Source: Acidimicrobiales bacterium
GTDB lineage: Bacteria > Actinomycetota > Acidimicrobiia > Acidimicrobiales > Bog-793
Reading direction: 5' to 3'
DNA: 64,000 nucleotides
Assembly: GCA_035294085.1 (NCBI GenBank)
Contig: DATGLP010000006.1
Location: 2,595 to 66,594 of the forward strand
Shown here: one piece after another, positions 2,008 to 33,006 of the stretch
How positions within the stretch are numbered: position 1 is the stretch's first letter
Layout of the letters: every line of letters starts with the position of its first letter
Position numbers and translations under genes: made by a program
Notes under the pieces: model-generated
The model's input: the letters and a program-made list of their open reading frames with translations, nothing else
The model's database searches: none
What the model was told of the DNA's origin: nothing

Positions 2008-2025
2008 GCCCGCACCGGGCGAGCT
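2002..2025. terminator. small hairpin between convergent stop codons (possible bidirectional terminator)
   Basis: AGCT-GA-GCCCG-CAC-CGGGC-G-AGCT. The stem spans both stop codons (TGA 2005..2007 and the reverse-strand stop at 2024..2026). No U-tract. Confidence 0.3.
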
Positions 2026-3166
2026 AGCGGCGCCGACGTGCCGTGCCGTCGCGGCGCGCGAGGGCACGTGCCCCGGCGGCGAGCATCAGCACGAGGACGA
2101 CGGCCCAAGCCGACAACCCGACGAAGAACCAGACCCTCGCCAGCGAGACCATGAACCCGAGCCTGGCGGCACGCCCGAGCGTGTAGGACGCCACCGTGTA
2201 CATCCCGAGCGGGAAGACGACGCTCCACAGGCGCGGCTCGTACGTGCGGGGGTAGCCCTGCAGGAGGTAGCGCCACACCCCGAACAGCACGAGGAGCGGT
2301 ATCCACCAGGTGCCGAAGGCCCACAGGACGGTCGAGAGCCCGACGAGAAAGGGGCGCAGCTCGCCGACGAAGGCCCCGCCCGGGACGTGCGCGTCGGCGA
2401 GGATCCCCGCCGCGGCGCGCACGCTGATGGCGGTCGCCCCCATCGCGATCCAGTACGCCGGGCCCATCTCCGCCGGCGTGATCTCGACGAGCAGGAGGCG
2501 GAGGAAGATCGCGCCGATGAGGAGGAGGTAGAGGACGGCGCCGACGCTCCAGAAGCAGACCGCGACCGCCGGAAGCGCGGCGCGCAGCGCGGCCGGGGGA
2601 CCCCCGGGCGCGAGCGCGGCGGCCACGATGGCCACGGACTGGGTGGCGACGACCCAGACGAGCCAGGTGCCGTTCAGCTCGCCGAGGACGGGCCGTCGGG
2701 CGGCGACCACGATCGACCACGGCAGGCCGTAGGTGAGGCCGAGCCAGACGAGCGCGCCCGCGGCACCGAGGCCGAGGGCGACGAGGGGGTGCCCGCCGAG
2801 CGCGACGCGCGCCGCGAGCACGTTCGAGCCGGCGACCACGGTGAAGTAGGCCATCGCGGTCGTCGGGTCGAGGAGGCTGCGCCGCACCGACGCCCGAAAC
2901 CAGACGAGGCGCGCGCCGTAGGCGAGGGTGAGGAGCACGAAGCCGGCGACCGTGACGCCGAGGACGACCTGCGAGAGAAGGGGGTACCCGAGGAGGTCGG
3001 CGCCGACGGAGACGATCCCGCTCGCCATGACGAACGCGAAGTAGCCGGGGTCGAGCGTGTCGAGCGCGCGCCGCACGGTGCCAGCACGCCCCGCGCCCGG
3101 CGCGGCCGGCGGCCGAGCAGGGGCGCTGCCGCCCTCGAGCCAGGCGAGGGGGTCGCCGGCGGTCAC
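2024..3166 (-). CDS. TDT family (TehA/Mae1/SLAC1-like) anion channel/transporter
   Basis: The real gene is the C-terminal ~380 aa of the 515-aa ORF. GTG at 3166 lies 13 nt after the narI stop. The profile is polytopic and hydrophobic, with TDT-like blocks LDPGYFAFVMASGIVS, GPAYWIAMGATAISV and VVFPLGMYTVAS. The upstream part of the ORF is Arg/Ser/Cys-rich read-through overlapping narI. Confidence 0.6.
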   Translation of the reverse strand: MTAGDPLAWLEGGSAPARPPAAPGAGRAGTVRRALDTLDPGYFAFVMASGIVSVGADLLGYPLLSQVVLGVTVAGFVLLTLAYGARLVWFRASVRRSLLDPTTAMAYFTVVAGSNVLAARVALGGHPLVALGLGAAGALVWLGLTYGLPWSIVVAARRPVLGELNGTWLVWVVATQSVAIVAAALAPGGPPAALRAALPAVAVCFWSVGAVLYLLLIGAIFLRLLLVEITPAEMGPAYWIAMGATAISVRAAAGILADAHVPGGAFVGELRPFLVGLSTVLWAFGTWWIPLLVLFGVWRYLLQGYPRTYEPRLWSVVFPLGMYTVASYTLGRAARLGFMVSLARVWFFVGLSAWAVVLVLMLAAGARALARRDGTARRRR

Positions 3167-3179
3167 GTCCGGCCGTCGC

Positions 3180-3941
3180 TCAGTAGGGCACACCGATGCG
3201 CCGCCAGCGCCGGCCGCTCGTCCCCGGTTCGTTCGGGCGCGTCGCGACCCGGCTGCGGTAGACGACGTACGGCCGCCACAGGTACCAGACCGGGTAGCTC
3301 CACGCGTGCACGAGGCGGCTGAAGGGCCACACGGCGAGCACCGCCCAGGCGGCCGTGGCGTGCACCTGGTAGATGAGCGGGGCGCGGGCCACCGCGCGCA
3401 CGTCGGGGTTGCCGACGAACAGTCCCCGGAACCACAGCGACACGCTCTCGCGGTAGTCGTAGCCGCTCCCGAGCAGCCCCACGCCGACGGTCTCGGCGAT
3501 CCCGAGCACGATGACGATGGCGAGCAGGACGAGCGCCACCCAGTCGACGGCGGACGTCGTCGCGCGGACACGGGCGACGAAGAGGCGGCGCCCCGCGAGG
3601 ATCGCGACGCCCGCGATCACGCCGGCAGCCGCGACGGTGCCCGCCGAGGCGGCGAACCAGCGGTAGGCCGCCTCGGGGATCCCGATGGCGCGCGTGAAAC
3701 GCTCGGGCACGAGGATGCCGATGACGTGGCCGCCGATGGCGGCGAACGTCGCGTAGTGGAACAACGGGGAGCCCCACTTCAGCAGGCGCCGCTCCTGGAG
3801 CTGGGTGGACCGGCTCGTCCAGCCGAACTGGTCGTAGCGGTAGCGCCAGACGTGGCCGATCACGAAGGTGGCGAGCGCGACGTACGGCAGGATCACCCAC
3901 CAGAACAGCTGGAAGCCGGTGACGCCGGCGAGTCCGCTCAC
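3180..3941 (-). CDS. narI: respiratory nitrate reductase gamma subunit (haem b membrane anchor)
   Basis: 253 aa, the last part of the 985-aa ORF. GTG 3941 overlaps the narJ stop (GTGA). NarI-like blocks: FWWVILPYVALATFVIGHVWRYRYDQFGWTSRS, FHYATFAAIGGHVIG and PFSRLVHAWS. Confidence 0.9.
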   Translation of the reverse strand: MSGLAGVTGFQLFWWVILPYVALATFVIGHVWRYRYDQFGWTSRSTQLQERRLLKWGSPLFHYATFAAIGGHVIGILVPERFTRAIGIPEAAYRWFAASAGTVAAAGVIAGVAILAGRRLFVARVRATTSAVDWVALVLLAIVIVLGIAETVGVGLLGSGYDYRESVSLWFRGLFVGNPDVRAVARAPLIYQVHATAAWAVLAVWPFSRLVHAWSYPVWYLWRPYVVYRSRVATRPNEPGTSGRRWRRIGVPY

Positions 3942-4549
3942 GTCGCCGCGGCGCACGCCCGACCGCGTCCGACCGCCGGCGCGGCCCTGGCGCCGTCGCC
4001 ACCTGCCCTCGCCCCCCGCCGGCGCCCGAGCGGCCCGAGTCGGCGCCGCGGACGCAGAACCTCCAGCAGCCCCTCGAGCGCGGCGGCGTACGGGCCCGAG
4101 GGGCCGAGGTCCTCGCTCAGCGCCTCGAGCGCGCTGCGGTGCTCGGCGAGGAGGGTGGCGCCAACTGGCGACACGGCCGCCAGCTCGAGCAGCGCCGGGA
4201 GGAAGTCGGGCAGTTCGCCCGGCGCGAGCGCGAGGCCGAGCGACCGGTAGGTGCCGGCCATCTCGGCGAGGGCGGCCCCCCGCTCGCGCCCCTCGCCGTA
4301 GCGGTAGGAGGTGAGGTGGAGCGAGCGTCGTCGCAGGTCGAAGGTGTCGACGTAGTCGGCCTGCGCCTCGAGGAGGGAGCGGAGGGCGAGCGCCTCGCAG
4401 GCAGCGGCGAGCCGGGCGCGCGCCCGCGAGCCCGGGAGGCGGCCGAGGGCGCCTCGCACCGCCCCGAGGTCCTCGGCGTAGCCCTCCTCCGGGTAGCTGA
4501 GGAGCACCGAGGCGCAGCCGAACAGGACCGCCGCCTCCCGGCGCCTCAC
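3938..4549 (-). CDS. narJ: nitrate reductase molybdenum cofactor assembly chaperone
   Basis: 203-aa ORF. GTG 4549 overlaps the narH stop (GTGA). NarJ-like block YVDTFDLRRRSLHLTSYRYGEGRERG. Positioned between narH and narI. Confidence 0.85.
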   Translation of the reverse strand: MRRREAAVLFGCASVLLSYPEEGYAEDLGAVRGALGRLPGSRARARLAAACEALALRSLLEAQADYVDTFDLRRRSLHLTSYRYGEGRERGAALAEMAGTYRSLGLALAPGELPDFLPALLELAAVSPVGATLLAEHRSALEALSEDLGPSGPYAAALEGLLEVLRPRRRLGPLGRRRGARAGGDGARAAPAVGRGRACAAAT

Positions 4550-6137
4550 GCCGGCGCCTCCGGCTCCGGCGAATCGGGCAGCACCCGCAGGTGGAGGCGC
4601 CGGACCTCGTCGCGGCCGAGGGCCTCGGCCGGATCGGCGGGGTCGCGCACGAGGATCTGGCTCGGCGTGGCCGCGACGCGAGGGTCCTCGTCAGCGCCGA
4701 GCGCGCAGCCGGAGAGGGCGTGCTGAGCGAGCAGACGCCCGCCCTCCTCGGCGTGCGCGGGGGCACGACGTAGCGGTCCTCGTAGCGGGCGATGGCGAGC
4801 AGGCGGAAGAGGTCCTCCGCATCCGCGTCGCTCATGCCCACGGCGTCGAGATCGACAGCCGGCGGACGCCCGAGCTGGCGCGCCCGCATGAGGGCGCGCA
4901 CGGCCGCGAGGCGTCGCAGCGCGTCGCGCACCGGTCCGACCCGCCCGGCGCTGAGCAGGCTGGCGAGGTACTCGAGCGGGATGCGCAAGGCGTCGATGGC
5001 GGCGAAGACCGCCGTCGGGTCTCGCCCGTCGTCGCCGCGGTCGGCGGCGACGTCGACGACCGGCGAGAGCGGCGGCACGTACCACACCATCGGCAGCGTC
5101 CGGAACTCCGGGTGCAGCGGCAGCGCGACCCGGTGGCGGGCGATCAGCGCGTAGGCAGGCGAGCGGCGGGCGGCCGCAACCCAGTCGTGCGGGATCCCCT
5201 GACGCTCCGCCTCGGCGGCGACGGCGGGGTCAGCCGGATCGAGGAAGAGCGCGAGCTGCGCCTCGTAGAGGTCGGCCGGGTCGGGGCTCGCGGCAGCGGC
5301 GGTCACGGCATCGGCGTCGTAGAGGACGAGCCCGAGGTAGCGCAGCCGACCGACGCAGGTCTCCGAGCAGATCGTGGGAAGTCCGGCCTCGACGCGGGGG
5401 AAGCAGAAGGTGCACTTCTCCGCCTTGCCGGTGCGGTGGTTGAAGTACACCTTCTTGTACGGGCACCCCGAGACGCAGAAGCGCCACCCTCGGCAGCGGT
5501 CCTGGTCGACGAGGACGATGCCGTCCTCGGACCGCTTGTACATCGCGCCCGACGGGCACGAGGCGACGCAGGAGGGGTTGAGGCAGTGCTCGCAGATGCG
5601 CGGCAGGTAGAACATGAACACCGACTCGAAGTCGAGCCGGACGCGCTCGCCGAGGGCAGCGAGGTTCGGGTCGTCGCGCGCGCGCTCGGGCGCCCCGGCG
5701 AGGTCGTCCTCCCAGTTCGCGCCCCAGCGCGGGGTCATCTCGAGGCCGGTCAGCGCCGACCGGGCCGAGACCGACGGTGCCTTCGTCCCCGCGGGGGCCT
5801 CGATCAGGCGCGCGTAGTCGTAGGTGAACGGGTCGTGGAAGTCCTCGATCGTCGGCAGGTCCGGGTTGTAGAAGATCGTCGCGAGCCGCCGCAGGCGCCC
5901 GCCGGCACGCAGGCGCAGCCGCCCCCTTCGGTCGAGCTCCCACCCGCCCTTCCAGCGCTGCTGGTCCTCGTAGTGCCTCGGGTAGCCGACGCCCGGCTTC
6001 GTCTCGACGTTGTTGAAGTAGACGTACTCGGTCCCCGGCCGGTTCGTCCACGTCTGCTTGCAGGTCACCGTGCAGGTGTGGCACCCGATGCACTTGTCGA
6101 GGTTCATCACCATGCACACCTGCGCCATCACCCGCAC
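4546..6137 (-). pseudogene. narH: respiratory nitrate reductase beta subunit, reading frame broken by an apparent 1-nt deletion (or assembly error) near the 3' end
   Basis: The N-terminus MRVMAQVCMVMNLDKCIGCHTCTVTCK, four Cys clusters and IARYEDRYVVPP are NarH. The conserved continuation AHAEEGGRLL...SGCALG...PEAPA* lies in the -1 frame (ORF 4546..5085). The junction is a G5 run at 4759..4763 (C5 on the coding strand). One extra C would give VVPPAHAEE. Confidence 0.8.
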
Positions 6138-6150
6138 GCCGGCCTCCCGA

Positions 6151-9100
6151 TCAGAACGCCACGTCCTGCGAGCGGCGCCGGATGACGGCGAGCTCGTCCC
6201 GCTGCGAGCCGGTCGGCCCGTAGTAGTTGAAGCCGTAGGAGAGCTGGGCGTAGCCGCCGATGAGGTGCGTCGGCTTCATGACGACGCGCGTCAGCGAGTT
6301 GTCGGTGCCGCCGTGCAGCCCGGACAGCTCGGAGAGGGGCATCTCGAGGTGGCGATCCACGGCGTGGTACATGAGCACGGTCCCCGGCGGGACGCGATGG
6401 CTGACCGCGGCGCGCGCCACCGTGACGCCGTTGCGGTTGTACGCCTCGACCCAGTCGTTGTCGGCGACCCCGAGGCGGCGCGCGTCGAGGTCGTTCACCC
6501 AGATGACCGGCCCGCCGCGGAACAGGTTCAGCATGTGCAGGTTGTCCTGGTACTCGGAGTGGATCGACCACTTCGAGTGCGGGGTGAGGAAGCGCGCGAC
6601 GAGCTGCGGGCCGGTCCCCGGCCGCCGCTGGTCGCCGAAGGCGGCGACGAGGTCGAGCGGCGGGCGGTAGGTGGGGAGCATCTCCCCGAGCTCGGCCACC
6701 CAGTCGTGGTCGAGGAAGAGGTGCTGGCGCCCCGTGAGGGTGTGCCAGGGCTTCAGCCGCTCGACGTTCACGGTGAACGGGGCGTAGCGGCGCTGGGACG
6801 ACTCTGCGCCGGACCACTCCGGCGAGCAGATGACCGAGCGCGGCTGGGCGATCGTGTCGGCGAAGGTGATGCGATCGCCGGCGCGCTCGTGCGCGAGGTC
6901 GGCGAGCCGCACACCCGTGCGCGCCTCGAGCGCCTCGAAGCCGGCGACCGCGAGCCGCCCGTTCGTCGTCCCCGAGAGCGCGAGGATCGCCTCGCAGAAC
7001 AGGATCGCCCGGTCGAGACGAGGACGACCGTGCGCGACGCCGCCGCGCACCGTCCCGTTCCGGCTGCGCAGGTACTCGACCTCGGCTCCGACGGGGAAGA
7101 CGACCCCCTTCGTCGTCGCGCCGAGCTCGTCGACGAGCGGTCCGAGCGCGCCGAAGCGCTCGGCGAGGCCCGGGTAGTCCCGCTCGACGACGACGAGGCG
7201 GGGCATCGTCCGGCCGGGCACGGGCGGGCACTCCCCTGCCTGCCAGTCGAGCGCCCGCCCGCCCGGCTGGGCGCACTCGTCGGGGGTGTCGTGCAGGAGC
7301 GGCACGGCGACGAGGTCCCGGCGCACGCCGAGCCGCCCGGCCGCGAGCCGGGAGAAGGCCGCGGCGAGGTCCTGGAAGATCTCGAAGTCCGGGCGCGCCT
7401 CCCAGGGGGGCGCGATCGCGGGGTTGAACGAGTGCACGAACGGGTGCATGTCGGTCGAGGAGAGGTCGTGCTTCTCGTACCAGGTCGCCGCCGGCAGCAC
7501 CACGTCGGCGTAGATGCCCGTCGAGGTCATGCGGAAGTCGATGTCGACGAGGAGGTCGAGCTTGCCCTCGGGCGCCGACTCGCGCCACGCGACCTCCCTC
7601 GGGCGCGCCTCGGGCGGACACGGAGAGGCCGCGACGGCATGGTCGGCCCCGAGGAGGTGCCTGAGGAAGTACTCGTGGCCCTTGCCCGAGGAGCCGAGGA
7701 GGTTCGAGCGCCAGACCGTGAGGACCCGCGGGAAGTTCGCCGGGTCATCGGGGTCGGCGGCCGCGAAGCGGAGCCGCCCGGCGGCGAGCTCCCCGACGAC
7801 GAAGTCGTCGCAGCTGCGCCCCGAGGCGACGGCCTCGTCGGCGAGGTCGAGCGGGTTGCGATCGAACGTCGGGTGGGAGGCGAGCCAGCCGCAGCGCGCC
7901 GCGTAGAGGTTGCAGTCCGCGACGGAGCGTCCGGCGAGGCGCCCGACGCCGAGGGGCGTGGCGAGCTCGTCGGCCCGGGCCGCCTCGTAGCGCCACTGGT
8001 CCGTGGCGAGGTACCAGAACGGGGTGGCCGGCATGTGCCGGGTCGGCCGCACCCAGTCCGCGGCGAAGGCGAGGGTCGACCACCCCGTCAGTGGGCGCAC
8101 CTTCTCCTGCCCCACGTAGTGGGCCCAGCCCCCGCCGTTCACCCCCTCGCACCCGGTGAGCAGGAGGAGAGCGAGGAAGGTGCGGTAGATCTGGTCCGAG
8201 TGGTACCAGTGGTTGGTCCCCGCGCCCATGGCGATCATCGAGCGACCGCCTGAGGCCTCGGCGTTGGCGGCGAACTCGCGAGCGACGCGCACGGCCGCGG
8301 CGGCCGGCACCGAGGTGATCGCCTCCTGCCAGGCTGGCGTGTAGGGTGCGCCGGCGTCGTCGTAGGACGACGGCCACTCGCCCGGGAGCCCCGGGCGCGC
8401 CACGCCGTAGTGGGCCATCACGAGGTCGAACACGGTCGTGACGAGACGGCCGCCGAGGCGGACCGCCGGGACGCCGCGCCGCACAGTCGAGCCCCCCTGA
8501 CCCTCCCCGACGTCGAAGCGCGGGAGGTCGACGGGGAGCGCCTCGGCGCCAGGCCGCCCGTAGAGGCTGAGCGCCGGGCGGATCTCCCCGAGGTCGAGGT
8601 TCCAGCGGCCGGCCCCCGACTCGCTCCAGCGGAAGCCGACCGATCCATTCGGCACGGCCGGCTCGCCCGTCGCCTCGTCGAGCACGACCGTCTTCCACTC
8701 GGCCAGCTCGACACGCTCGCCGAGGTCGGCGGCGGTGAGGAAGTGGTCGGGCACGTACGCGTCGGCGCGCTCGCGCAGCGAGACGAGGAAGGGCAGGTCG
8801 GTGTAGCGCGCTGCGTAGGCGGCGAAGGGCGGGTCGGGTCGGTCCCGGTAGAACTCGGTCAGGATGACGTGGCCCATCGCCATCGCCAGGGCGGCGTCGG
8901 TGCCCGGCGCCGCGGCGAGCCACTCGTCCGCGAACTTCGTGTGGTCGGAGTAGTCGGGCGAGACGACGACGACCTTCTGGCCCCGGTAGCGGGCCTCCGC
9001 CATGAAGTGCGCGTCGGGGGTGCGCGTGATCGGCAGGTTCGTGCCCCACACGATGAGGTAGGAGGCGTTCCACCAGTCGGCCGACTCCGGCACGTCGGTC

Positions 9101-9840
9101 TGGTCGCCGAAGGTCTGCGGCGAGGCCACCGGCAGGTCGGCGTACCAGTCGTAGAAGGAGAGGACCACGCCGCCGAGCAGGGAGTAGAAGCGCGTGCCGG
9201 CCGCGTAGGAGGCCATCGACATCGCCGGGATGACGGTGAACCCGGCCGTACGGTCCGGGCCGTAGGTGGCGACCGTGTGCACGTGCGCCGCGGCGACGAG
9301 CTCGAGCACCTCCGGCCACGGCGCGCGCACGAACCCGCCGCGGCCGCGCGCGGACTTGTACGCACGGGCGCGCTCGGGGTCGCCGCTCACCTCCGCCCAC
9401 GCCGCCACCGGGTCGCCGAGGCGCTCGCGGGCGGCGCGCCACGCCTCGAGGAGCACGCCCCGCACGTAGGGGTAGCGCACCCGCGCCGGCGAGTACGTGT
9501 ACCAGGAGAACGACGCCCCCCGCGGGCAGCCGCGCGGCTCGTACTCGGGCGAGTCCGGCCCCACCGACGGGTAGTCGACCGCCTGGGTCTCCCAGGTGAT
9601 GATCCCGTCCTTGACGAAGACCTGCCACGAGCACGAGCCGGTGCAGTTCACGCCGTGGGTCGAGCGCACGACCTTGTCGTGGCGCCAGCGCTCCCGGTAG
9701 AAATCCTCGGCGCGCCGCCCGCCACGGCGGTGCAGCTCACGCGTGTCGGGCGACGGCACGCCCGGCTGGAGGTAGCGGGCCGCCCGCACGAGGCCGCTGC
9801 CGGCGAGGAGCTCGGCCCCGCCGGCGCGCGCTGCGCTCAC
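6151..9840 (-). CDS. narG: respiratory nitrate reductase alpha subunit (Mo-bisPGD)
   Basis: 1262-aa ORF with probable start at GTG 9840 (VSAARAGG...). FS0 motif RSTHGVNCTGSCSW. Long DMSO-reductase-family body. The GGAGG of narH follows the stop. Confidence 0.95.
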   Translation of the reverse strand: MSAARAGGAELLAGSGLVRAARYLQPGVPSPDTRELHRRGGRRAEDFYRERWRHDKVVRSTHGVNCTGSCSWQVFVKDGIITWETQAVDYPSVGPDSPEYEPRGCPRGASFSWYTYSPARVRYPYVRGVLLEAWRAARERLGDPVAAWAEVSGDPERARAYKSARGRGGFVRAPWPEVLELVAAAHVHTVATYGPDRTAGFTVIPAMSMASYAAGTRFYSLLGGVVLSFYDWYADLPVASPQTFGDQTDVPESADWWNASYLIVWGTNLPITRTPDAHFMAEARYRGQKVVVVSPDYSDHTKFADEWLAAAPGTDAALAMAMGHVILTEFYRDRPDPPFAAYAARYTDLPFLVSLRERADAYVPDHFLTAADLGERVELAEWKTVVLDEATGEPAVPNGSVGFRWSESGAGRWNLDLGEIRPALSLYGRPGAEALPVDLPRFDVGEGQGGSTVRRGVPAVRLGGRLVTTVFDLVMAHYGVARPGLPGEWPSSYDDAGAPYTPAWQEAITSVPAAAAVRVAREFAANAEASGGRSMIAMGAGTNHWYHSDQIYRTFLALLLLTGCEGVNGGGWAHYVGQEKVRPLTGWSTLAFAADWVRPTRHMPATPFWYLATDQWRYEAARADELATPLGVGRLAGRSVADCNLYAARCGWLASHPTFDRNPLDLADEAVASGRSCDDFVVGELAAGRLRFAAADPDDPANFPRVLTVWRSNLLGSSGKGHEYFLRHLLGADHAVAASPCPPEARPREVAWRESAPEGKLDLLVDIDFRMTSTGIYADVVLPAATWYEKHDLSSTDMHPFVHSFNPAIAPPWEARPDFEIFQDLAAAFSRLAAGRLGVRRDLVAVPLLHDTPDECAQPGGRALDWQAGECPPVPGRTMPRLVVVERDYPGLAERFGALGPLVDELGATTKGVVFPVGAEVEYLRSRNGTVRGGVAHGRPRLDRAILFCEAILALSGTTNGRLAVAGFEALEARTGVRLADLAHERAGDRITFADTIAQPRSVICSPEWSGAESSQRRYAPFTVNVERLKPWHTLTGRQHLFLDHDWVAELGEMLPTYRPPLDLVAAFGDQRRPGTGPQLVARFLTPHSKWSIHSEYQDNLHMLNLFRGGPVIWVNDLDARRLGVADNDWVEAYNRNGVTVARAAVSHRVPPGTVLMYHAVDRHLEMPLSELSGLHGGTDNSLTRVVMKPTHLIGGYAQLSYGFNYYGPTGSQRDELAVIRRRSQDVAF

Positions 9841-9992
9841 GTCGCCGTCTCGGTCAAGCCCGCTGCCTCGCTTCCGGGCGCATCGCTCGTTCTGGGCAGC
9901 ATCGCAGCCCGGTCGTGTGCCGTCAAGGACGCGACGCATCGCCCCACGAGGTGGTGCAGCGGCGGCCGGGCAGCCGCTGGTCGTCGATGTTT

Positions 9993-10020
9993 TTCTGCTC
10001 TATGCTAGAAATAGTTCTGC
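9993..10020. promoter_or_regulatory. AT-rich palindromic box TTCTGCT-N5-CTAGAA plus adjacent ATAGTTCTGC half-site in the narG / hemerythrin divergent region
   Basis: This is the only AT-rich patch in the 195-nt intergenic region. The palindrome lies at 9993..10010. The 10-mer ATAGTTCTGC (10011..10020) recurs exactly at 12470..12479. TATGCT (10001..10006) is a possible -10 element. Confidence 0.4.
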
Positions 10021-10035
10021 ACGAGGAGGCGCGCC

Positions 10036-10974
10036 GTGACCGTGTCGGAGACCGAGAGCTTCCAGGCGATGCTCGCCCACCACCGAGAGCTCGAGGAGGG
10101 CGTCGCGCGTCGAGTCGCGGCCGTGCGCGACGCGCACCGCTCGGGCGAGGGCGCGCCCGGCGCGACCCGCGAGCTCGTCGCCTTCCTCGCCGGGACGGTC
10201 CTGCCGCACGCGGCGGCCGAGGAGCGCTCCGTCTACGCCGCTGCCGCGGCCCGTGCGGAGCTCGCCGCGACTATCGAGGAGATGACCGGCGAGCACGAGG
10301 CGCTCGCCGCTTCGGTGGCCCGCCTCGCCGGCCTCGCCTCGAGCGATGCCACGCCGCAGCTCGCTGCGGAGATCCAGGAGCTGTTCGCCTCCCACGTCGC
10401 TCGCGAGAACGAGGTCGTGCTGCCCGCCCTCCTCGCCGACCCTGGCGCCGACCTCAGCGCGCTCCTCGCCGCGATGCACGGCGAGCTCGGCTCCCCGGCG
10501 CGGCCCGACGAGGCCGGCGAGGTAGCGGGGCCCCTCGTGGCGCTCCTCCTCGAGGCGACCGAGGAGCTGGCGGCGAGCGGCCGCGGCGAGCGGGCGTGCT
10601 CGCTCGCCGCGGCCGCGTGGGTGGCGTGCCGGCGCTCCCGGCCCGACCTCGCCGCCCGGCTCGGCGCCGCCCTCCACCGCCTCAGCGCCGCGGCGCCCGC
10701 TCGGGCGGCGGCGCCCGGCGAGCCCGAACCGGGCGACCTCGAGCTCGACGTGCGACCGCTCGCCCCAGCGGAGCGCCACCGCGCCATCTTCGCCGCCTTC
10801 GATCGCCTCGCCCCGGGCACCGGCTTCGTCCTCGTGAACGACCACGAGCCGCGCCCCCTTCGCTACCAGCTCGAGGCCGAGCACCCCGGCGAGTTCACCT
10901 GGGCGGACCTCGAGACCGGCCCGCGGGTCTGGCGCGTACGCATCGGACGGGCCGGCGTCGCCGGATCGTCCTGA
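10036..10974 (+). CDS. hemerythrin (HHE cation-binding) domain fused to a DUF2249 domain
   Basis: 312-aa ORF with GAGGAGG (10023..10029) before GTG 10036. The N-terminal half has His/Glu spacing typical of hemerythrin (HHRELEE, PHAAAEE, EHEAL, SHVARENE). The C-terminus reads DVRPLAPAERHRAIFAAFDRLAPGTGFVLVNDHEPRPLRYQLEAEHPGEFTW..WRVRI, a DUF2249-type sequence. Confidence 0.75.
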   Translation: MTVSETESFQAMLAHHRELEEGVARRVAAVRDAHRSGEGAPGATRELVAFLAGTVLPHAAAEERSVYAAAAARAELAATIEEMTGEHEALAASVARLAGLASSDATPQLAAEIQELFASHVARENEVVLPALLADPGADLSALLAAMHGELGSPARPDEAGEVAGPLVALLLEATEELAASGRGERACSLAAAAWVACRRSRPDLAARLGAALHRLSAAAPARAAAPGEPEPGDLELDVRPLAPAERHRAIFAAFDRLAPGTGFVLVNDHEPRPLRYQLEAEHPGEFTWADLETGPRVWRVRIGRAGVAGSS

Positions 10975-10985
10975 TCCCCCGCTCG

Positions 10986-11023
10986 CTGCGCCGCCGGGAC
11001 GTCCGCCTCGCCCGGCGGCGCAG
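10986..11023. terminator. perfect 13-bp GC hairpin between convergent genes (bidirectional terminator candidate)
   Basis: CTGCGCCGCCGGG-(12 nt)-CCCGGCGGCGCAG. It starts 12 nt after the stop at 10974 and lies 70 nt before the convergent stop at 11093. No U-tract. Confidence 0.5.
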
Positions 11024-11092
11024 CGCCGGGCGCGTTCGAGAGGTGCCTCGACGGCGGCGCGCCGCGCGGCCGGCGCGGGAGCGGTCCGCGCG

Positions 11093-12460
11093 CTAGGCGG
11101 TCCGCTCGCCGGAACTGGCGCGCGCGGCGAGCACCGTCGGGCGCCACGACAGGTTGAGCGCGCCGAGCAGGCCACTCGCCGCGAGCAGCGAGCCGCCGAC
11201 GGCGGTGGCGGCGGGTGCTCGGGCAGCGAGGCCGGCGCACAGCGCCGCGACACCGCCGTTCACGAGGAGGTACGTGAGCGCCGCTGCGACGTGGCCGTAG
11301 AGATCGGCGAACAGGAGCGGGCGGCCAGCGCTGCTGCGGGCCACGCCCCGGGCGCGCAGGGCGGACCAGGCGATGAACGGCACGACCTTGTGGGCGTGCC
11401 CGACGAGCGTGACGAGGAGCCAACCGGCGATTGCCGCCACGCTCGCCGCCGCGAACGCGCGAGCCGGCCCGCCCGAACCCGCGAGCGCGCCGTCGAGGCC
11501 GAGTGCGGCGCCGGCGACGAGCCAGCACGCGGAGGTGACGACGAAGAGCAGGTGGAGGTCCGCGCGCCGCCGGCGGCGGCGGAGATGGGCGGCGAGCGAC
11601 GCGAGGTGCGCCCCGAGCCCGAGCGCGAGGAGCGCCGCCCCGGTCCAGGCGACGGCGGGCACGCGAAGGAGCAGGCCCGGAGCGAGCAGCGCGGCACCGG
11701 CGGGCACGGCCGACACCGCGAGCCAGGCGACCCGATGGCGGCCGGGCAGGTGCGCGAGGAAGAACATCGGCCAGAGCTTCTCGGCGACGCTCACGTAGAC
11801 GAGTCCGAGCCAGCCGAACAGACCGACGACGGCGTGAGCGAGGACCACGTGGCCCGACAGGTCGAACCAGCCCGCCCGGCGGTCGGCGACGTAGACGACG
11901 CCGAAGCACGCCGTCGCCACGAAGCCGGCGAGGCCGGTCCGCAGGCCGGCGACCGGCGCCCCCCGGCCGCGCGCGGCGAGCGGGGCTGCGAGGTTGGCGA
12001 CGGCGAGGGCGACGGCGACGGCAGCGAGACCGCCGCCGGCCTCGACGAGGTCCTCGACCCCGGTCGAAAAGCCGAGGGGCAGGAGCGCGCACGCCGCGGC
12101 GAAGGCGGCGAGGGTGGCGCGGGCGAGGCGCGTCGAGCGCAGCGGGCGCTGCGTGACGACCGGGACGAACTGGTGCATCGCCCCGAGCACGCCCATCGAC
12201 AAGGTGGCCAGCATGCCGAGGTGCGCGGCGGCCACGACCTCGTCGGCGGTCGGGTCGACGGCTGCCTGCCCTGCGACGAGCGCCCAGGCGATGCCGCAGG
12301 CCACGAGACCGACGGCCGCAACAGCGAGGAAGGCGAGCGGGACCGACGGCGGCGGCACGCTGCCGGGCACGCCGGACGGGCGCCCGGCCCACGGCCCGGC
12401 CGGCGCACCGGCGGGGGCGCTGGCCGCCGCACGCACCGTGGCCTTCGCCCCAGCGTCCAC
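11093..12460 (-). CDS. 12-TM integral membrane protein with conserved-looking intramembrane His residues (haem/copper-binding candidate, NnrS or haem-copper-oxidase-like)
   Basis: 455-aa ORF with about 12 hydrophobic segments. His residues inside predicted TMs: AAAHLGMLATLSMGVLGAMHQFVP, GHVVLAHAVVGLFGW and LVGHAHKVVPFIAW (H-x-H). The N-terminal 40 aa are low complexity, so the start (GTG 12460) is uncertain. Confidence 0.6.
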   Translation of the reverse strand: MDAGAKATVRAAASAPAGAPAGPWAGRPSGVPGSVPPPSVPLAFLAVAAVGLVACGIAWALVAGQAAVDPTADEVVAAAHLGMLATLSMGVLGAMHQFVPVVTQRPLRSTRLARATLAAFAAACALLPLGFSTGVEDLVEAGGGLAAVAVALAVANLAAPLAARGRGAPVAGLRTGLAGFVATACFGVVYVADRRAGWFDLSGHVVLAHAVVGLFGWLGLVYVSVAEKLWPMFFLAHLPGRHRVAWLAVSAVPAGAALLAPGLLLRVPAVAWTGAALLALGLGAHLASLAAHLRRRRRRADLHLLFVVTSACWLVAGAALGLDGALAGSGGPARAFAAASVAAIAGWLLVTLVGHAHKVVPFIAWSALRARGVARSSAGRPLLFADLYGHVAAALTYLLVNGGVAALCAGLAARAPAATAVGGSLLAASGLLGALNLSWRPTVLAARASSGERTA

Positions 12461-12468
12461 GCCTGCAC

Positions 12469-12491
12469 TATAGTTCTGCTAGTTACCAGAA
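12469..12491. promoter_or_regulatory. second copy of the palindromic box (ATAGTTCTGCT-AGTTA-CCAGAA) with TATAGT -10-like hexamer
   Basis: TTCTGCT-N5-CCAGAA at 12474..12491 contains the perfect inverted repeat TTCTG-N8-CAGAA. TATAGT lies at 12469..12474. It sits in the 64-nt divergent spacer between the membrane protein gene and the DUF2249 operon. Confidence 0.4.
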
Positions 12492-12524
12492 AAAACCGGC
12501 CCGTCGGCCGGGGGAGGTGGCGAG

Positions 12525-12743
12525 ATGGCCCTCGTGGACGCCCGTCCGATCATCGCGGCCGGAGGCGAGCCGTTCGAGACGATCATGGCGGCGGTTGCCT
12601 CGCTCGCCGACGGCGAGGAGCTCGTCGTCCTCGCGCCCTTCGAGCCCGTGCCCCTCGAGGGGGTACTGTCGTCGCAGGGGTTCGCCTACGAGGCGGTCGA
12701 CATCGGAGGTGGCGATTGGCGGGTCACCTTCCGGCGGACGTGA
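12525..12743 (+). CDS. small DUF2249-like protein
   Basis: 72-aa ORF with GGAGG (12513..12517) 7 nt before the ATG. DARPIIAAGGEPFETIMAAVASL..GEELVVLAPFEPVPL..GF.....DWRVTFRR resembles the DUF2249 / TusA-like small-domain pattern. Confidence 0.6.
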   Translation: MALVDARPIIAAGGEPFETIMAAVASLADGEELVVLAPFEPVPLEGVLSSQGFAYEAVDIGGGDWRVTFRRT

Positions 12744-13114
12744 GCGAGGAGCGCTCGGGCCGGCCGGTCTCGATCGGCCCGGCCCGAACCCGTCCCGACG
12801 CCGAGGACCCCGTCGGGCGCGCCTGGGCGGCGCTCGGCGACGTCTACGACCCCGAGCTGTGCCTCGACGTCGTGTCCCTCGGTCTCGTCTACGGCATCGC
12901 TGCGGTGGACGGCGCGCTCGTCGTGGAGATGACCCTCACGACGCCGGGCTGTCCGGCCGCGGAGAGCCTCCCCGAGCTCGCCGCCGAGGCCGTCGAGGCC
13001 GCGCTCGGCGGGTCGTTGCCCGTCGAGGTCCGCCTCGTCTTCGACCCGCCGTGGAGCCCGGCGATGATGTGCGAGGAGGCCGCGGCGGCCCTCGGGTTCC
13101 CGGCGAGGCGGTGA
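12740..13114 (+). CDS. DUF59 / SufT-MIP18-like Fe-S cluster assembly domain protein
   Basis: GTG 12740 overlaps the upstream stop (GTGA). VYDPELCLDVVSLGLVYGI....VVEMTLTTPGCPAAE is the hallmark DUF59 block. Confidence 0.75.
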   Translation: MSEERSGRPVSIGPARTRPDAEDPVGRAWAALGDVYDPELCLDVVSLGLVYGIAAVDGALVVEMTLTTPGCPAAESLPELAAEAVEAALGGSLPVEVRLVFDPPWSPAMMCEEAAAALGFPARR

Positions 13115-13482
13115 CCGTGGGCGTGGAGATCGTCCGCACCTACGAGGACCCCGGGCGCACCGCCGGCGAGCACCGCGTGCTCGTCGATCGGCTCTGGCCG
13201 CGCGGGATGGCGAAGGCCGCCGTCGACTACGACGAGTGGCTGAAGGACGTGGCGCCGAGCGAGGCGCTGCGGCGCTTCTACGGGCACGAGCCGGCGCGCT
13301 TCGAGGAGTTCGCCCGCCGCTACCGAGCTGAGCTCGGCGCGCCCCCGGCCGCTGCCGAGGTCGAGCGACTCCGCGCGCTCGCCCGCGCGGGCACCCTCGT
13401 GCTGCTCACGGCGACGCGCGACGTCGACCGCTCCGGCGCGGCCGTCCTGCGCGCGGTGCTCGAGGAGCGCCCCCACCGGTGA
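13111..13482 (+). CDS. DUF488 family protein
   Basis: GTG 13111 overlaps the upstream stop (GTGA). RVLVDRLWPRGMAKAAVDYDEWLKDVAPSEALRRFYGHEPARFEEFARRYRAEL matches the DUF488 consensus as I remember it. Confidence 0.7.
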   Translation: MTVGVEIVRTYEDPGRTAGEHRVLVDRLWPRGMAKAAVDYDEWLKDVAPSEALRRFYGHEPARFEEFARRYRAELGAPPAAAEVERLRALARAGTLVLLTATRDVDRSGAAVLRAVLEERPHR

Positions 13483-15809
13483 CCTCGGCGGCCCGCTGGC
13501 GGACCGCCGTGCACGGCATGGGCCGCATCGGCGAGGGGCGCGCGCTCAAGTGGGCGCTCGAGTCCTACTGGGCCGGGCGCTCGAGCGCCGACGAGCTCGA
13601 GGCGACTGGCGCGGCGATCCGCCGGGCGAACTGGCGCGCCGCGGCGGCGGCCGGGATCGACTTCATCCCCTCGAACGACTTCTCCCTCTACGACCACGTG
13701 CTCGACGCCGCGGTCATGACCGGCGCCCTGCCGGCGCGCCTCTCGGCTGGGGCCCCGCTCGGCCTCGACGCCTACTTCGCCCTCGCTCGCGGCGGAACGG
13801 TCGGCGGCCGCTTCGTCGCGCCGCTCGAGCTCACGAAGTGGTTCGACACGAACTACCACCACCTCGTGCCCGAGGTCGGCCCCGCCACCGCCTTTCGGGC
13901 CGACCCCTCCAAGGCGCGCGCCGAGCTCGCGGAGGCGGCCGGGCTCGGGATCGAGACGACGCCCGTCCTCCTCGGACCGTGCACCCTCCTCCTGCGCTCG
14001 AGCACCGAGGAGCCGGGCGTCGCGCCGGCGCGCCTCGTCGATCGCCTCGTGGACGTCTACGCCGAGGTGCTCGCCGCGCTCGCTGGCGACGGAGCGGCCT
14101 GGGCGGTCCTCGACGAGCCGGCGCTCGTCGAGGACCGCTCCACGGAGGAGCTCGACCTCGTCCGGCGCGCCTACGAGCGCCTCGGCGAGCGCACGGAGCG
14201 CCCGATGCTGGCGCTCAGCACGTACTTCGGCCACGTCGGCGAGGCGATGCCCCTCCTCGCCTCGCTGCCCGTCGAGGGGATCGGGCTCGACTTCTGCCGC
14301 GGCCCGGAGAACCTCGAGCTCCTCGAGGCCGCTGGCGGCCTCGGGCAGCGGGTGTGCTTCGCCGGGGTGGTCGACGGCCGGAACGTGTGGGTGAACGACC
14401 TCGAGCGATCCCTCGCCCTCCTCGCCCGCCTCGCGCCGCTCGCCAGGGAGGTCGTCGTGTCGACCTCCTGCTCGCTCCTGCACGTCCCCCTCGGCTTGCG
14501 CTTCGAGCCAGCCCTCGACGAGGAGGTGCGCCCCCTCCTCGCGTTCGCCGAGGAGAAGCTCGTCGAGCTCGGGATCCTCGCCCGCGGGGCTGCGGGGGGC
14601 GCCGAGGCGATCGCCGAGGAGCTGGCGGCCAACCGCGCGCTCCTCGAGGCGCGCCGGCGCTCCCCGCGCATCGTCGACCCGGCGCTGCGGCGCCGTATCG
14701 CCACCGTCGAGCCCGATCCGCGTCGCTCGGCGCGACCCGAGGAGCGCGCCGCCGCCCAGCGCGCGCGCCTCGGCCTGGCGCCGCTCCCGACGACGACGAT
14801 CGGCTCGTTCCCCCAGACCCAGGCGCTGCGGGCGCTTCGCGCCTCGTGGCGGGCGGGCGCGACGAGCGACGACGAGTACCGTCGGGCGCTTCGCGCCGAG
14901 ATCGACCGCGTCGTCGCGCTCCAGGAGGAGATCGGCCTCGACGTGCTCGTCCACGGCGAGCCCGAGCGCGACGACATGGTCCGCTACTTCGCCGAGCGTC
15001 TCGACGGCTTCGTGCTCCCAGCCGAGGGCTGGGTCCAGTCCTACGGCTCGCGCTGCGTCCGACCACCGGTGCTCTTCGGCGAGGTGCGCCGGGCCGCGCC
15101 GATCACCCTCGAGTGGACCCGGTACGCGCAGTCGAGGACGAGCCGGCCGGTGAAGGGCATGCTGACGGGGCCGGTGACGATGCTGCGGTGGTCCTTCGTG
15201 CGCGAAGACCAGCCGGAGTCCGACACGGCGCTCCAGCTCGCCCTGGCGCTTCGCGACGAGCTCGTCGAGCTCGAAGCCGCCGGGACCGCCGTCATCCAGG
15301 TCGACGAGCCGGCGCTGCGGGAGGGCCTCCCGCTCCGGGCCGCGGCGCGCCCCGCCTACCTCGCCTGGGCGACCCGCGCCTTTCGGACCGTGGTCTCGCC
15401 GGCCGGCCCGGCCACCCAGGTCCACACGCACATGTGCTACGCCCAGCTCGGCGACATCCTCGACGCGCTCGCCGACCTCGAGGTCGACGTCGTCTCGCTC
15501 GAGGCGGCGCGCTCGAAGATGGCGCTCGTGGGCGAGCTCGCCGCGAGCCGCTACGCGGGCGGCGTCGGTCCCGGCGTCTACGACGTCCACTCGCCGCGCG
15601 TCCCCGAGGCGGCGGAGATCGCGGCGCTGCTGCGCTCGGCGCTCGAACGCCTTCGGCCGGAGCGGCTGTGGGTGAACCCGGACTGCGGACTGAAGACCCG
15701 GCGCTACGAGGAGGTCGAGCCGGCGCTCCGCCACCTCGTCGCCGCGGCGGCGACGGTGCGAGCGGAGCTCGCGGCGCAGCCGACCGACGGCCGAGCCGCG
15801 GCACGCTAG
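13479..15809 (+). CDS. metE: cobalamin-independent methionine synthase
   Basis: 776-aa ORF. GTG 13479 overlaps the DUF488 stop (GTGA). It looks collinear with MetE over its full length (GRIGEGRALKWALESYWAG, IGSFPQT, HTHMCY, NPDCGLKTR). Confidence 0.95.
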   Translation: MTSAARWRTAVHGMGRIGEGRALKWALESYWAGRSSADELEATGAAIRRANWRAAAAAGIDFIPSNDFSLYDHVLDAAVMTGALPARLSAGAPLGLDAYFALARGGTVGGRFVAPLELTKWFDTNYHHLVPEVGPATAFRADPSKARAELAEAAGLGIETTPVLLGPCTLLLRSSTEEPGVAPARLVDRLVDVYAEVLAALAGDGAAWAVLDEPALVEDRSTEELDLVRRAYERLGERTERPMLALSTYFGHVGEAMPLLASLPVEGIGLDFCRGPENLELLEAAGGLGQRVCFAGVVDGRNVWVNDLERSLALLARLAPLAREVVVSTSCSLLHVPLGLRFEPALDEEVRPLLAFAEEKLVELGILARGAAGGAEAIAEELAANRALLEARRRSPRIVDPALRRRIATVEPDPRRSARPEERAAAQRARLGLAPLPTTTIGSFPQTQALRALRASWRAGATSDDEYRRALRAEIDRVVALQEEIGLDVLVHGEPERDDMVRYFAERLDGFVLPAEGWVQSYGSRCVRPPVLFGEVRRAAPITLEWTRYAQSRTSRPVKGMLTGPVTMLRWSFVREDQPESDTALQLALALRDELVELEAAGTAVIQVDEPALREGLPLRAAARPAYLAWATRAFRTVVSPAGPATQVHTHMCYAQLGDILDALADLEVDVVSLEAARSKMALVGELAASRYAGGVGPGVYDVHSPRVPEAAEIAALLRSALERLRPERLWVNPDCGLKTRRYEEVEPALRHLVAAAATVRAELAAQPTDGRAAAR

Positions 15810-17008
15810 CGGGCACCGGCGAGGGCCAGGGCGCCGAGGGCGGCGGCCATCGAGCAGGGCACGGCCACGAGCCCGATGCGGCTCGCGCGCGCCGGCGACG
15901 GTCGCGCGCCGGCAGCGCGCGCCGCCTTCAGCCACAGGAGCCAGGCGAGCGAGCCGGTGACCGCCAGGTTCGGCCCCAGGTTGAGGCCGACGAGGAGCGC
16001 GAAGGGGTGCGGCACGCGGCCCGCCGCGAGGAGGGACGCCGCCGGCAGGTTGTTGACGAGGACCGAGACCGCCGCGCCGAGCGCCCCCGTCGCCCACCCG
16101 CCGAGGTGGGCGAGCAGGTCGGCGGGGCCGGACCACGACCGCCCGAGCACGCCGAGGGCTACCGCCACGCCGAAGAGGCCGACGAGGACGGGCAGGCCCA
16201 GCACCTCGAGGACGCGGCCGGGGCGCTCGCGCCGGGCGGCGAGGCGGAGCACGCTGGCGCCGGCGCCGACCCCGGCGACGGCCGGAGCCGGATCGCGCAG
16301 CACGACGACGAGGACGGTCACGGCAACGACGGCAAGCGCGCCGAGGCCGAGGACGGGGCGGCCGGGCTCGCCGGGCGCGTCGCGCCGGGCGCGCAGCGAA
16401 CGGCGCTCGGCGACGGCCACGACGGCGATCGTCACGGCGAGCGCCGCCAGCGCCGGAAGCCACATGCGCGCGGCGAAGCGGCGGCCGCCGAGGTGCAGGT
16501 GGCCGAGGACGATGAGGTTCGTGAGGTTCGAGCCCGGGAGCAGGAGGGAGCCGGCGTTCGAGCACAGCAGGCAGCCGTAGAGGAGGGGCGAGTCGTCCTC
16601 GTCCCGGCTCCTCGCGCAGTGCACGAGCACCGGGGTGAGGAAGGCGACGGACGTGTCGAGGTTGAGGACGGCCGTCACCGCGCCGACGACGAGCATCGCC
16701 CCGAGGAAGAGCGCGCCCCCGCCCGGCGCGAGCCGGGCGATCGCGCTGCCCGCGGCGGCGAACAGCCCGTCGCCGTCGGCCAGGAGCCCGACGAGCAGCA
16801 GCCCGGTGACGAGGACGAACGGGGGCCAGTCCTGGGCGGCGGCCGCCGCGGCCGCGCCCGGTCTCGCCCCGGCCGCGGCCGCCAGGCCCGCGAGTCCCGC
16901 CAGACCGAACGCGCGCCAGGCGGCGCGCCGCGGGCCGGGCCGCCGCCCGGCTGCGCCGGCCGTGCGGGCGAGCGCCGCGCTGAGGGCGCCCCGGAGGCGG
17001 CCACGCAC
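15806..17008 (-). CDS. ArsB/NhaD-superfamily (citrate-transporter-like) permease
   Basis: 400-aa polytopic ORF. Blocks LNLDTSVAFLTPV, GSNLTNLIV and VNNLPA are typical of the ArsB/NhaD permease fold. It lies 18 nt downstream of lpd on the same strand. Confidence 0.6.
   Translation of the reverse strand: MRGRLRGALSAALARTAGAAGRRPGPRRAAWRAFGLAGLAGLAAAAGARPGAAAAAAAQDWPPFVLVTGLLLVGLLADGDGLFAAAGSAIARLAPGGGALFLGAMLVVGAVTAVLNLDTSVAFLTPVLVHCARSRDEDDSPLLYGCLLCSNAGSLLLPGSNLTNLIVLGHLHLGGRRFAARMWLPALAALAVTIAVVAVAERRSLRARRDAPGEPGRPVLGLGALAVVAVTVLVVVLRDPAPAVAGVGAGASVLRLAARRERPGRVLEVLGLPVLVGLFGVAVALGVLGRSWSGPADLLAHLGGWATGALGAAVSVLVNNLPAASLLAAGRVPHPFALLVGLNLGPNLAVTGSLAWLLWLKAARAAGARPSPARASRIGLVAVPCSMAAALGALALAGAR

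Positions 17009-31200: not shown

Positions 31201-33006
<1,806 letters not shown>

Follow-up and report, generated by a model that had tools for sequence, protein, structure and literature searches.

The 64,000-nt stretch of DNA analysed here (the window; Acidimicrobiales bacterium, assembly GCA_035294085.1, contig DATGLP010000006.1, positions 2,595–66,594) carries metE, the gene for cobalamin-independent methionine synthase, as the last of four head-to-tail genes, and the 64-bp spacer in front of the first of these contains an 18-bp inverted repeat that recurs in the promoter region of the nearby respiratory nitrate reductase genes narGHJI and is conserved as an operator among relatives. With somewhat better than even confidence we read this arrangement as a four-gene operon expressed from the 64-bp spacer under a repressor of the SufR/ArnR type, such that metE would track nitrate respiration or nitrosative stress. 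The wider proposition, that in a clade of soil Acidimicrobiales the ancestral B12-riboswitch control of metE has been replaced by an ArnR-like repressor that senses nitric oxide (NO) through an iron–sulfur (Fe–S) cluster, thereby coupling B12-independent production of methionine to nitrate respiration and to nitrosative stress, is put forward tentatively, as possible rather than probable.

The window has a G+C content of 74% and is 99.97% identical to a 212-kb soil-metagenome contig in the ENA. Pfam searches identify the four genes, in order on the plus strand, as encoding a DUF2249 protein, a DUF59/SufT-like protein, a DUF488 protein and MetE (Table 1). MetE is full length and has both of its domains over 776 residues (PF08267, E 1.1e-105; PF01717, E 4e-137); it is 45–69% identical to MetE from 160 loci, the closest being those of metagenome-assembled Acidimicrobiales genomes at 64–69%. 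The 72-residue DUF2249 protein, which by translation contains neither histidine nor cysteine, is 72–90% identical to its counterparts at five related loci (L002, L003, L005, L083 and L163; loci of relatives are given L numbers throughout). The DUF59 protein holds a TTPGCP motif and scores 90.6 bits against the NCBIfam model SUF_assoc (cut-off 143.4) and 75.2 bits against SufT (cut-off 202.6), and no suf operon was seen near its gene.

An earlier note on this DNA had described metE as translationally coupled to the three upstream genes through GTGA motifs at all three junctions, with a metE start that overlaps the DUF488 stop and leaves metE no leader of its own. The motifs can be read from the sequence at 12740–12743, 13111–13114 and 13479–13482, and the start of metE can be assigned with confidence: in its frame, GTG 13479 is the sole start codon between the upstream stop (13329–13331) and the conserved R-T-A-V-H-G N-terminus, which the next start would remove. 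The middle junction is ambiguous, as in-frame GTG codons for DUF488 are found at 13111, 13117 and 13123; the public gene call takes 13117, which opens a 2-nt gap after DUF59, and a GAGG Shine–Dalgarno motif at 13105–13108 is better spaced for 13117, so that DUF488 may start there rather than at 13111 and the claim of three overlaps may hold for two. Because 4-nt overlaps are commonplace on the contig, where they also join narI to narJ, narJ to narH and several further gene pairs, three in a row would be tidy rather than remarkable. All four genes lie on one strand with stop and start codons that overlap or abut (2 nt apart if DUF488 starts at 13117), which is the arrangement by which an operon is recognized in sequence, and no terminator-like site was found on the plus strand of 12525–15809. 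From this we infer co-transcription: the genes appear to make up a single transcription unit, within which metE has no leader of its own. At the far end of the unit the metE stop (15806–15809) overlaps by 4 nt the stop of a convergent CitMHS/ArsB-type transporter gene (15806–17008, minus strand), and no terminator-like structure was found between the two.

Comparison with relatives bears on the overlap of DUF488 and metE. Their MetE proteins start M-R-T-A-V-H-G; at the position of their ATG the window has TGG (13497–13499), with the start displaced 18 nt further upstream; the DUF488/metE overlap has thus arisen as a derived trait in this organism. The window MetE accordingly has a six-residue N-terminal extension, VTSAAR, encoded by what is spacer sequence in the relatives.

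No riboswitch was found in the window at the Rfam gathering threshold, other than a thiamine pyrophosphate (TPP) riboswitch (32900–33003, minus strand, 57.9 bits) that stands in front of thiC in an ordinary arrangement, and lowering the threshold to E ≤ 10 over 10900–13700 returned merely chance matches to microRNA and CRISPR-repeat families. As positive control, Rfam finds the cobalamin riboswitch (RF00174) directly 5′ of metE in Streptomyces, in Mycolicibacter and in six other relatives, and the same model detects the aptamer in L010, L031, L043, L086–L088 and L090. The absence of a riboswitch from metE, as reported in the earlier note, is thus upheld. A nhmmer profile made from those seven cobalamin aptamers was then used to count matches upstream of metE in 150 relatives. 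Overall, 75 of the 150 have one. Among loci whose MetE is 57–64% identical to that of the window the count is 23 of 24, versus none of the seven loci at 64% identity or above. The earlier note had attributed the absence to lack of room in front of metE. This explanation fails: the aptamer-free group includes two stand-alone metE genes with 130–325 nt upstream (L084 and L085), and lack of room is therefore not the cause. As judged with this profile, the B12 riboswitch is missing from the whole clade with MetE identity of at least 64%, whatever sits upstream.

What the operon does have in front of it is the inverted repeat (dyad) TTCTGCTAGTTACCAGAA, the partner of which, TTCTGCTCTATGCTAGAA, lies 2.5 kb away in the divergent promoter shared by narG and a gene for a hemerythrin–DUF2249 fusion protein. 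The consensus of the dyad is TTCTAG-N6-CTAGAA. L003, L083 and L176 have orthologous dyads 36–42 nt ahead of the DUF2249 start, and more copies are found in L005 and L163. A regular expression derived from these sites matches both window dyads as well as an independent perfect palindrome, TTCTAGTAGAATCTAGAA, that precedes an ArsR-type regulator gene of L005 by 22 nt, against a background of three matches in 2.03 Mb of unrelated loci. In L005, L163, L164, L166, L170 and L176 the dyad is found 20–60 nt upstream of the gene for this regulator itself, and in L176 the three best matrix matches coincide with the promoters of the regulator gene, of the hemerythrin–DUF2249 gene and of the DUF2249–DUF59/membrane-protein pair. 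Test matrices were built only from four or seven regulator-proximal sites of other genomes, with 100 shuffles as control. With these foreign matrices the window site at 9993 ranks first (24.7–25.3 bits) and that at 12474 second (17.6–19.2 bits), followed by a third match at 7–10 bits; the shuffle maximum is 18.3 bits. Unlike the overlaps, the dyad occurs in excess over chance. We conclude from these comparisons that it is a conserved operator, with putative protein binding, common to the narG/hemerythrin and metE-operon promoters. The two promoters also have in common the exact 10-mer ATAGTTCTGC, found in the 64 kb only at 10011–10020 and 12470–12479, and with it the link of metE to nitrate respiration, which the earlier note had offered as its own inference, gains support. 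The dyad was also read as a −35/−10 core promoter and as a binding site for GlnR, NsrR, DosR, Rex or FNR; none of these readings fits, and all were dropped.

The spacer at 12461–12524, which the earlier note had singled out as a palindrome-containing control region, divides the operon from a divergent gene for a 455-residue membrane protein, and conservation of its dyad across relatives bears this assignment out. Next to the dyad lies the palindrome ACTATAGT, which offers a −10-like hexamer on either strand; the hexamers TAGAGT and TATAGT are found at the equivalent place in L003 and L083, and we infer that ACTATAGT is a promoter element. Its position suggests that the divergent membrane-protein gene gives rise to a leaderless mRNA beginning at GTG 12460. 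Between the dyad and the Shine–Dalgarno sequence of DUF2249 is a GC hairpin that is terminator-like only on the minus strand. A structured leader is not claimed, since the fold of 12475–12540 is no more stable than that of shuffled sequences (z 0.47). The layout of the spacer is mirrored at the other operator copy, where a GC hairpin (9960–9986) and a T-run precede the dyad (together 9960–9992).

The ArsR-type regulator whose gene adjoins the dyad in relatives is our candidate for the protein that would bind it. It belongs to a family of 2,818 homologues, the top 120 of which are at least 68% identical and come mostly from Acidimicrobiales. Pfam assigns it HTH_20 and HTH_5, that is, a helix-turn-helix (HTH) of the ArsR type, and it has a weak full-length match to cyanobacterial SufR (NCBIfam TIGR02702, E 1.2e-6). 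In an alignment of 31 regulator sequences, all from relatives, R48-Q-H50, G71-R-P-R74, C162, C176, H179 and C208 are invariant, and an AlphaFold model (mean predicted local distance difference test score, pLDDT, of 81) matches ArsR-type winged HTH (wHTH) structures, with a C-terminal domain that matches TRAPPC3/bet3. The published hallmarks of SufR-like COG2345 proteins are an R-x-H motif, a GRP AT-hook, three cysteines and, three residues beyond the second of these, a fourth ligand, which is His in ArnR and Glu in SufR (bioRxiv 10.64898/2025.12.26.696629). By these features the regulator of the relatives is a predicted SufR/ArnR-like, [4Fe-4S]-type member of COG2345. Its gene adjoins narGHJI and a SLAC1 gene in L164 and L165, and the membrane-protein gene plus DUF2249–DUF59 in L163 (the cultured Acidiferrimicrobium sp. 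IK), L005 and L176. The position of the dyad in front of the regulator gene makes it a putative autoregulatory site in these relatives. The L170 genome, which has the ArnR-like regulator, encodes in addition a second, 227-residue HTH_20 protein divergent from a NifU gene (12927–14585 of L170); this protein may be a true SufR paralogue with a role separate from that of the ArnR-like regulator.

The order DUF2249–DUF59–(DUF488)–metE is found on five contigs, namely the window, L002, L003, L005 and L083, and the linkage is old, because MetE of the syntenic contigs is only 64–66% identical to that of the window. Coupling of the genes as the earlier note described it is conserved in one part and not in the others. 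The 4-nt overlap of DUF2249 and DUF59 (ATGA or GTGA) is kept in all of the relatives compared (L002, L003, L005, L083, L163, L173 and L176), including modules without metE. The tight DUF59/DUF488 and DUF488/metE junctions are specific to this organism; in the relatives these junctions consist of gaps of 85–216 nt, a decayed DUF488 or an added gene. Thus, the later junctions of L002 are spacers of about 85 and 93 nt, the DUF488 gene of L003 (1186–1323) is a 45-codon remnant and that of L083 (3107–3433) is frameshifted, in both cases with DUF2249, DUF59 and metE intact, and in L005 an HhH-GPD gene stands between DUF488 and metE, joined to the latter by GTGA. Judged by these genomes, DUF488 is dispensable for metE, and a literature search on DUF488 proteins turned up no function for them. 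Most sampled DUF2249–DUF59 modules lack both metE and DUF488, and these two genes look like late additions to a DUF2249–DUF59 operon, made in one subclade only. Elsewhere metE has other surroundings: in L004 the regulator gene immediately precedes it, 43 nt away, in L089 (MetE 57% identical, no riboswitch) it is flanked by narGHJI and a hemerythrin gene, and a distant paralogue of the regulator is encoded nearby, and in L084 and L085 it stands alone in unrelated contexts.

Table 1. Positions of the operator copies, the metE operon and the associated nar genes in the window.
Feature	Position	Strand	Details
narGHJI, respiratory nitrate reductase	3180–9939	−	Pfam; narG start 9840 or 9939; operator-bearing divergent promoter in common with hemerythrin gene
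Operator dyad copy 1, TTCTGCTCTATGCTAGAA	9993–10010		Divergent promoter of narG and hemerythrin–DUF2249; followed by AATAGT (10010–10015)
Hemerythrin–DUF2249 fusion, 312 aa	10036–10974	+	Hemerythrin E 4.9e-16, DUF2249 E 4.2e-29; divergent from narG
Membrane protein, 455 aa, 12 helices	11093–12460	−	Divergent from metE operon; probably leaderless, GTG 12460
Palindrome ACTATAGT	12467–12474	both	TATAGT −10-like hexamer; minus-strand copy ends 6 nt before GTG 12460
Operator dyad copy 2, TTCTGCTAGTTACCAGAA, 18 bp	12474–12491		34 nt upstream of DUF2249 ATG
GC hairpin CCGGCC-CGTC-GGCCGG	12496–12511	+	In presumed 5′ untranslated region; A6 before, Shine–Dalgarno GGGAGGTG (12512–12519) after
DUF2249 protein, 72 aa	12525–12743	+	PF10006 E 1.8e-17, residues 4–71 of 72
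DUF59 (FeS_assembly_P)/SufT-like Fe–S assembly protein, 124 aa	12740–13114	+	PF01883 E 1.2e-15
DUF488 protein, inactive N3 subclade, 121–123 aa	13111–13482	+	Pfam DUF488-N3i E 6.3e-33
metE, cobalamin-independent methionine synthase, 776 aa	13479–15809	+	Pfam Meth_synt_1 and Meth_synt_2; exact protein on record

The genes around the two operators are listed in Table 1. narGHJI lies 2.6 kb from the DUF2249 gene, and the hemerythrin–DUF2249 gene, the product of which is faintly RIC-like by NCBIfam, is conserved beside the DUF2249–DUF59 module in L005, L173 and L176. The 455-residue membrane protein has no Pfam or NCBIfam family and no Pfam COX1 match, and all of its 585 homologues are annotated as hypothetical. 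Its AlphaFold2 model (predicted template modelling score, pTM, of 0.81) was matched by Foldseek with CcoN of cbb3 oxidases (template modelling (TM) score 0.61–0.65) and with NorB of cytochrome c-dependent nitric oxide reductase (cNOR; TM score 0.46–0.47) at E 2e-4 to 2e-3, and the protein has a H355-x-H357 pair and several invariant histidines. It may be an uncharacterised relative of the heme–copper oxidases (HCO) under the same operator. DUF2249 proteins have been tied to nitrate respiration and denitrification: they are required in Thermus (DrpA, 72 aa; PMC6282519) and induced in haloarchaeal denitrification (PMC11218638). By their content and arrangement, the DUF2249, DUF59, hemerythrin–DUF2249, HCO-like and nar genes look like a set for nitrate respiration and nitrosative stress.

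Several further observations mostly concern the nar genes. Compared with the ENA record, the window has a 1-nt deletion at 4759 within narH, by which the last ca. 70 codons are frame-shifted, and four substitutions at 4379, 4403, 5907 and 5926 (narJ/narH); the deletion is either an assembly error or marks a variant strain in which the beta subunit of nitrate reductase is damaged. Directly downstream of narI is a SLAC1/TehA-type anion-channel gene (2024–3166, minus strand), and narK is absent from the cluster. In L164 and L165, too, SLAC1 is linked to nar, and in L089 a SLAC1 gene adjoins metE. The SLAC1 product is a candidate for a nitrate/nitrite channel that takes the place of NarK. A second molybdopterin oxidoreductase cluster (25692–30268, plus strand) encodes a Fer4/NrfD-type subunit and a 985-residue subunit of the molybdenum-bis(pyranopterin guanine dinucleotide) (Mo-bisPGD) type; it adjoins a LysR regulator gene, with a Nitrate_red_del-type chaperone gene further on.

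On the reading that we favour, the DUF2249–DUF59–DUF488–metE operon would be transcribed from around 12481 in the spacer, giving a transcript with a 5′ hairpin and a strong Shine–Dalgarno sequence for DUF2249, with ribosomes reinitiating on the downstream genes where the reading frames overlap. The predicted occupant of the dyad is an ArnR-like [4Fe-4S] wHTH holo-repressor; since the −10-like box and the probable start of transcription both lie partly within the dyad, its binding would silence the two divergent promoters. Cluster loss or nitrosylation would then release it. ArnR itself, a SufR-like COG2345 [4Fe-4S] repressor of narKGHJI and hmp in Corynebacterium glutamicum, is released by NO (PMC12343034; bioRxiv 10.64898/2025.12.26.696629), as happens when nitrate reduction yields NO. 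Expression of metE would in consequence follow nitrate respiration and nitrosative stress, not B12, and its purpose could be to provide an N-oxide-proof replacement of MetH (PMC13059711), to compensate for MetE damage or to meet an anaerobic shortage of B12. No metH or B12 genes are present among the Pfam-annotated genes of the window or of the 10 kb to its left.

A number of points weigh against an operon under a SufR/ArnR-type repressor. By tblastn there is no homologue of the regulator in the 64-kb window (best E 0.7–3), and no ArnR/SufR-like gene was found in the 10 kb to the left of it. The dyad does not coincide in sequence with the ArnR site described for the hmp gene of C. glutamicum, TAATCTAATTAAATAAATC, and of the two window sites that of the metE operon is the weaker. 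A scan of 9800–16200 for sigma-70 consensus promoters gave none, though such a scan is uninformative for Actinobacteria. By sequence a promoter inside DUF488 is possible, and relatives have spacers of 90–216 nt before metE. Finally, in L084 and L085, which belong to the same clade, the stand-alone metE has no dyad, and dyad control is therefore not universal for metE. As to the missing regulator, a DDE_Tnp_1 transposase gene (L168 8070–9737) lies about 0.3–1.9 kb to the left of the window start, near the nar cluster, with a 615-residue cytochrome-b-like gene (160–2007 of the window) beside both. A transposase next to nar hints at rearrangement, a possible cause of the displacement of the regulator gene from this locus.

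Among other explanations, passive genome compaction survives best, although we hold it to be unlikely. Here, metE would have landed by chance downstream of a cluster of small genes unrelated to it, deletion bias in a compact, high-GC genome would have produced the overlaps, and metE would be constitutive, or have a weak promoter of its own within DUF488, and the link with nitrate would be without function. The routine 4-nt overlaps on the contig, the derived nature of the DUF488/metE overlap, the variation of the junctions among relatives, the stand-alone metE genes of L084 and L085 and the many DUF2249–DUF59 modules without metE all agree with this. Against it, the linkage has outlasted divergence of MetE to 64–66% on five contigs and even the decay of DUF488, L004 and L089 provide two further architectures in which metE lies near a regulator gene (that of the regulator itself in L004, that of a paralogue, along with narGHJI and a hemerythrin gene, in L089), and the clade has no other known control element for metE. 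Rather improbable, in our estimation, is a regulator that acts through the same operator on the same operon but reports Fe–S/iron status or oxygen, as SufR does, which would place metE in an Fe–S or oxidative-stress regulon. The SufR similarity of the regulator, the presence of a SufT-like gene and a RIC-like hemerythrin protein in the regulon, and the existence of regulator loci with no nar genes nearby would fit such a role. The predicted fourth ligand, however, is His as in ArnR and not Glu as in SufR; no suf operon adjoins any of the regulator loci seen, and L170 has its separate HTH_20 paralogue by NifU; the narG promoter of the window contains the operator, and in L164 and L165 narGHJI has the regulator gene as its neighbour; and the regulon contains the NOR/cbb3-like membrane protein. 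Very improbable, and rejected on the comparative data, is that the DUF2249, DUF59 and DUF488 proteins are MetE-specific accessory or repair factors (which would, for example, protect or re-metallate its reactive zinc-thiolate site) that are co-translated for stoichiometry, for while proteins needed in fixed proportion typically have genes with tight start/stop overlaps and DUF59/SufT proteins (here by NCBIfam similarity) mature metallo-cofactors, the DUF2249–DUF59 pair with its conserved overlap occurs without metE at most sampled loci (L163, L173–L176), L003 and L083 have an intact metE but DUF488 only as a pseudogene, L005 has an unrelated HhH-GPD gene before metE, and MetE of L004, L084 and L085 does without these partners.

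The SufR/ArnR-type operon that we favour has counterparts among known systems. The closest is ArnR, with which the regulator of the relatives, compared by published features, has in common a wHTH with R-x-H motif, the GRP AT-hook, a dimerisation helix and a TRAPPC3-like domain, as well as the ligand pattern, Cys-X13-Cys-X2-His-X28-Cys here versus C179/C193/His/C223 in ArnR. Both are actinobacterial, with an AT-rich operator and targets that include respiratory nitrate reductase and putative NO-handling genes. They differ in the operator, which here is TTCTAG-N6-CTAGAA, and in the predicted regulon, which here holds hemerythrin–DUF2249, the HCO-like protein, DUF2249–SufT and, in a subclade, metE, with no hmp seen. 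The drpAB genes of Thermus thermophilus are accessory nitrate-respiration genes downstream of nar with their own promoter under the nitrate-respiration regulator (PMC6282519). Like the operon in the window, they comprise a gene for a 72-residue, single-domain DUF2249 protein that overlaps the next gene, near narGHJI and with a larger DUF2249 fusion nearby; unlike it, the partner is DrpB (DUF1858 plus two DUF2249 domains) instead of a DUF59/SufT-like protein, and in Thermus no metE is linked. The window DUF2249 protein also lacks the conserved His residues noted for DrpA and its homologues in nar clusters (PMC11218638), and in this regard is no DrpA orthologue.

The third comparison is with metE under the cobalamin riboswitch (RF00174), as in M. 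tuberculosis and Streptomyces, and with the switch from MetH to metE under N2O in Paracoccus and Pseudomonas (PMC13059711, citing Sullivan et al. 2013). The enzyme is the same, with both Pfam domains, and so is the physiological logic of the earlier note, which had proposed MetE as an N-oxide-proof synthase. The control is different, in that no aptamer occurs at MetE identities of 64% and above, unlike in the next band, and in that a protein repressor would act on the operon promoter, making metE answer to the N-oxide signal itself instead of to depletion of B12. B12-dependent methionine synthase is inactivated by N2O and NO, growth being restored by MetE, and recent work shows that this shapes interactions among soil bacteria (PMC13059711). 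As known to date, the switch to MetE operates via B12 riboswitches.

ArnR/SufR-type regulons and coupled operons are known kinds of system, to which inclusion of metE would add a variant. If our reading is correct, MetE would be switched on directly and in anticipation by the repressor that controls nitrate reductase, rather than via a B12 riboswitch, and the arrangement would be a genomic footprint of NO/N2O poisoning of MetH, or of anaerobic B12 shortage, as a selective force in nature. metE would also be the first amino-acid biosynthesis gene in an ArnR-type regulon; our literature search returned no paper that links ArnR to methionine. Should metE prove to be a passenger only, what is left would still be an ordinary compact operon, and a regulon prediction of use for the DUF2249, DUF59, hemerythrin and HCO-like genes associated with nar. 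Should it prove to be a true member, the barely explored SufR/ArnR-like family would gain a defined operator and regulon in the Acidimicrobiales.

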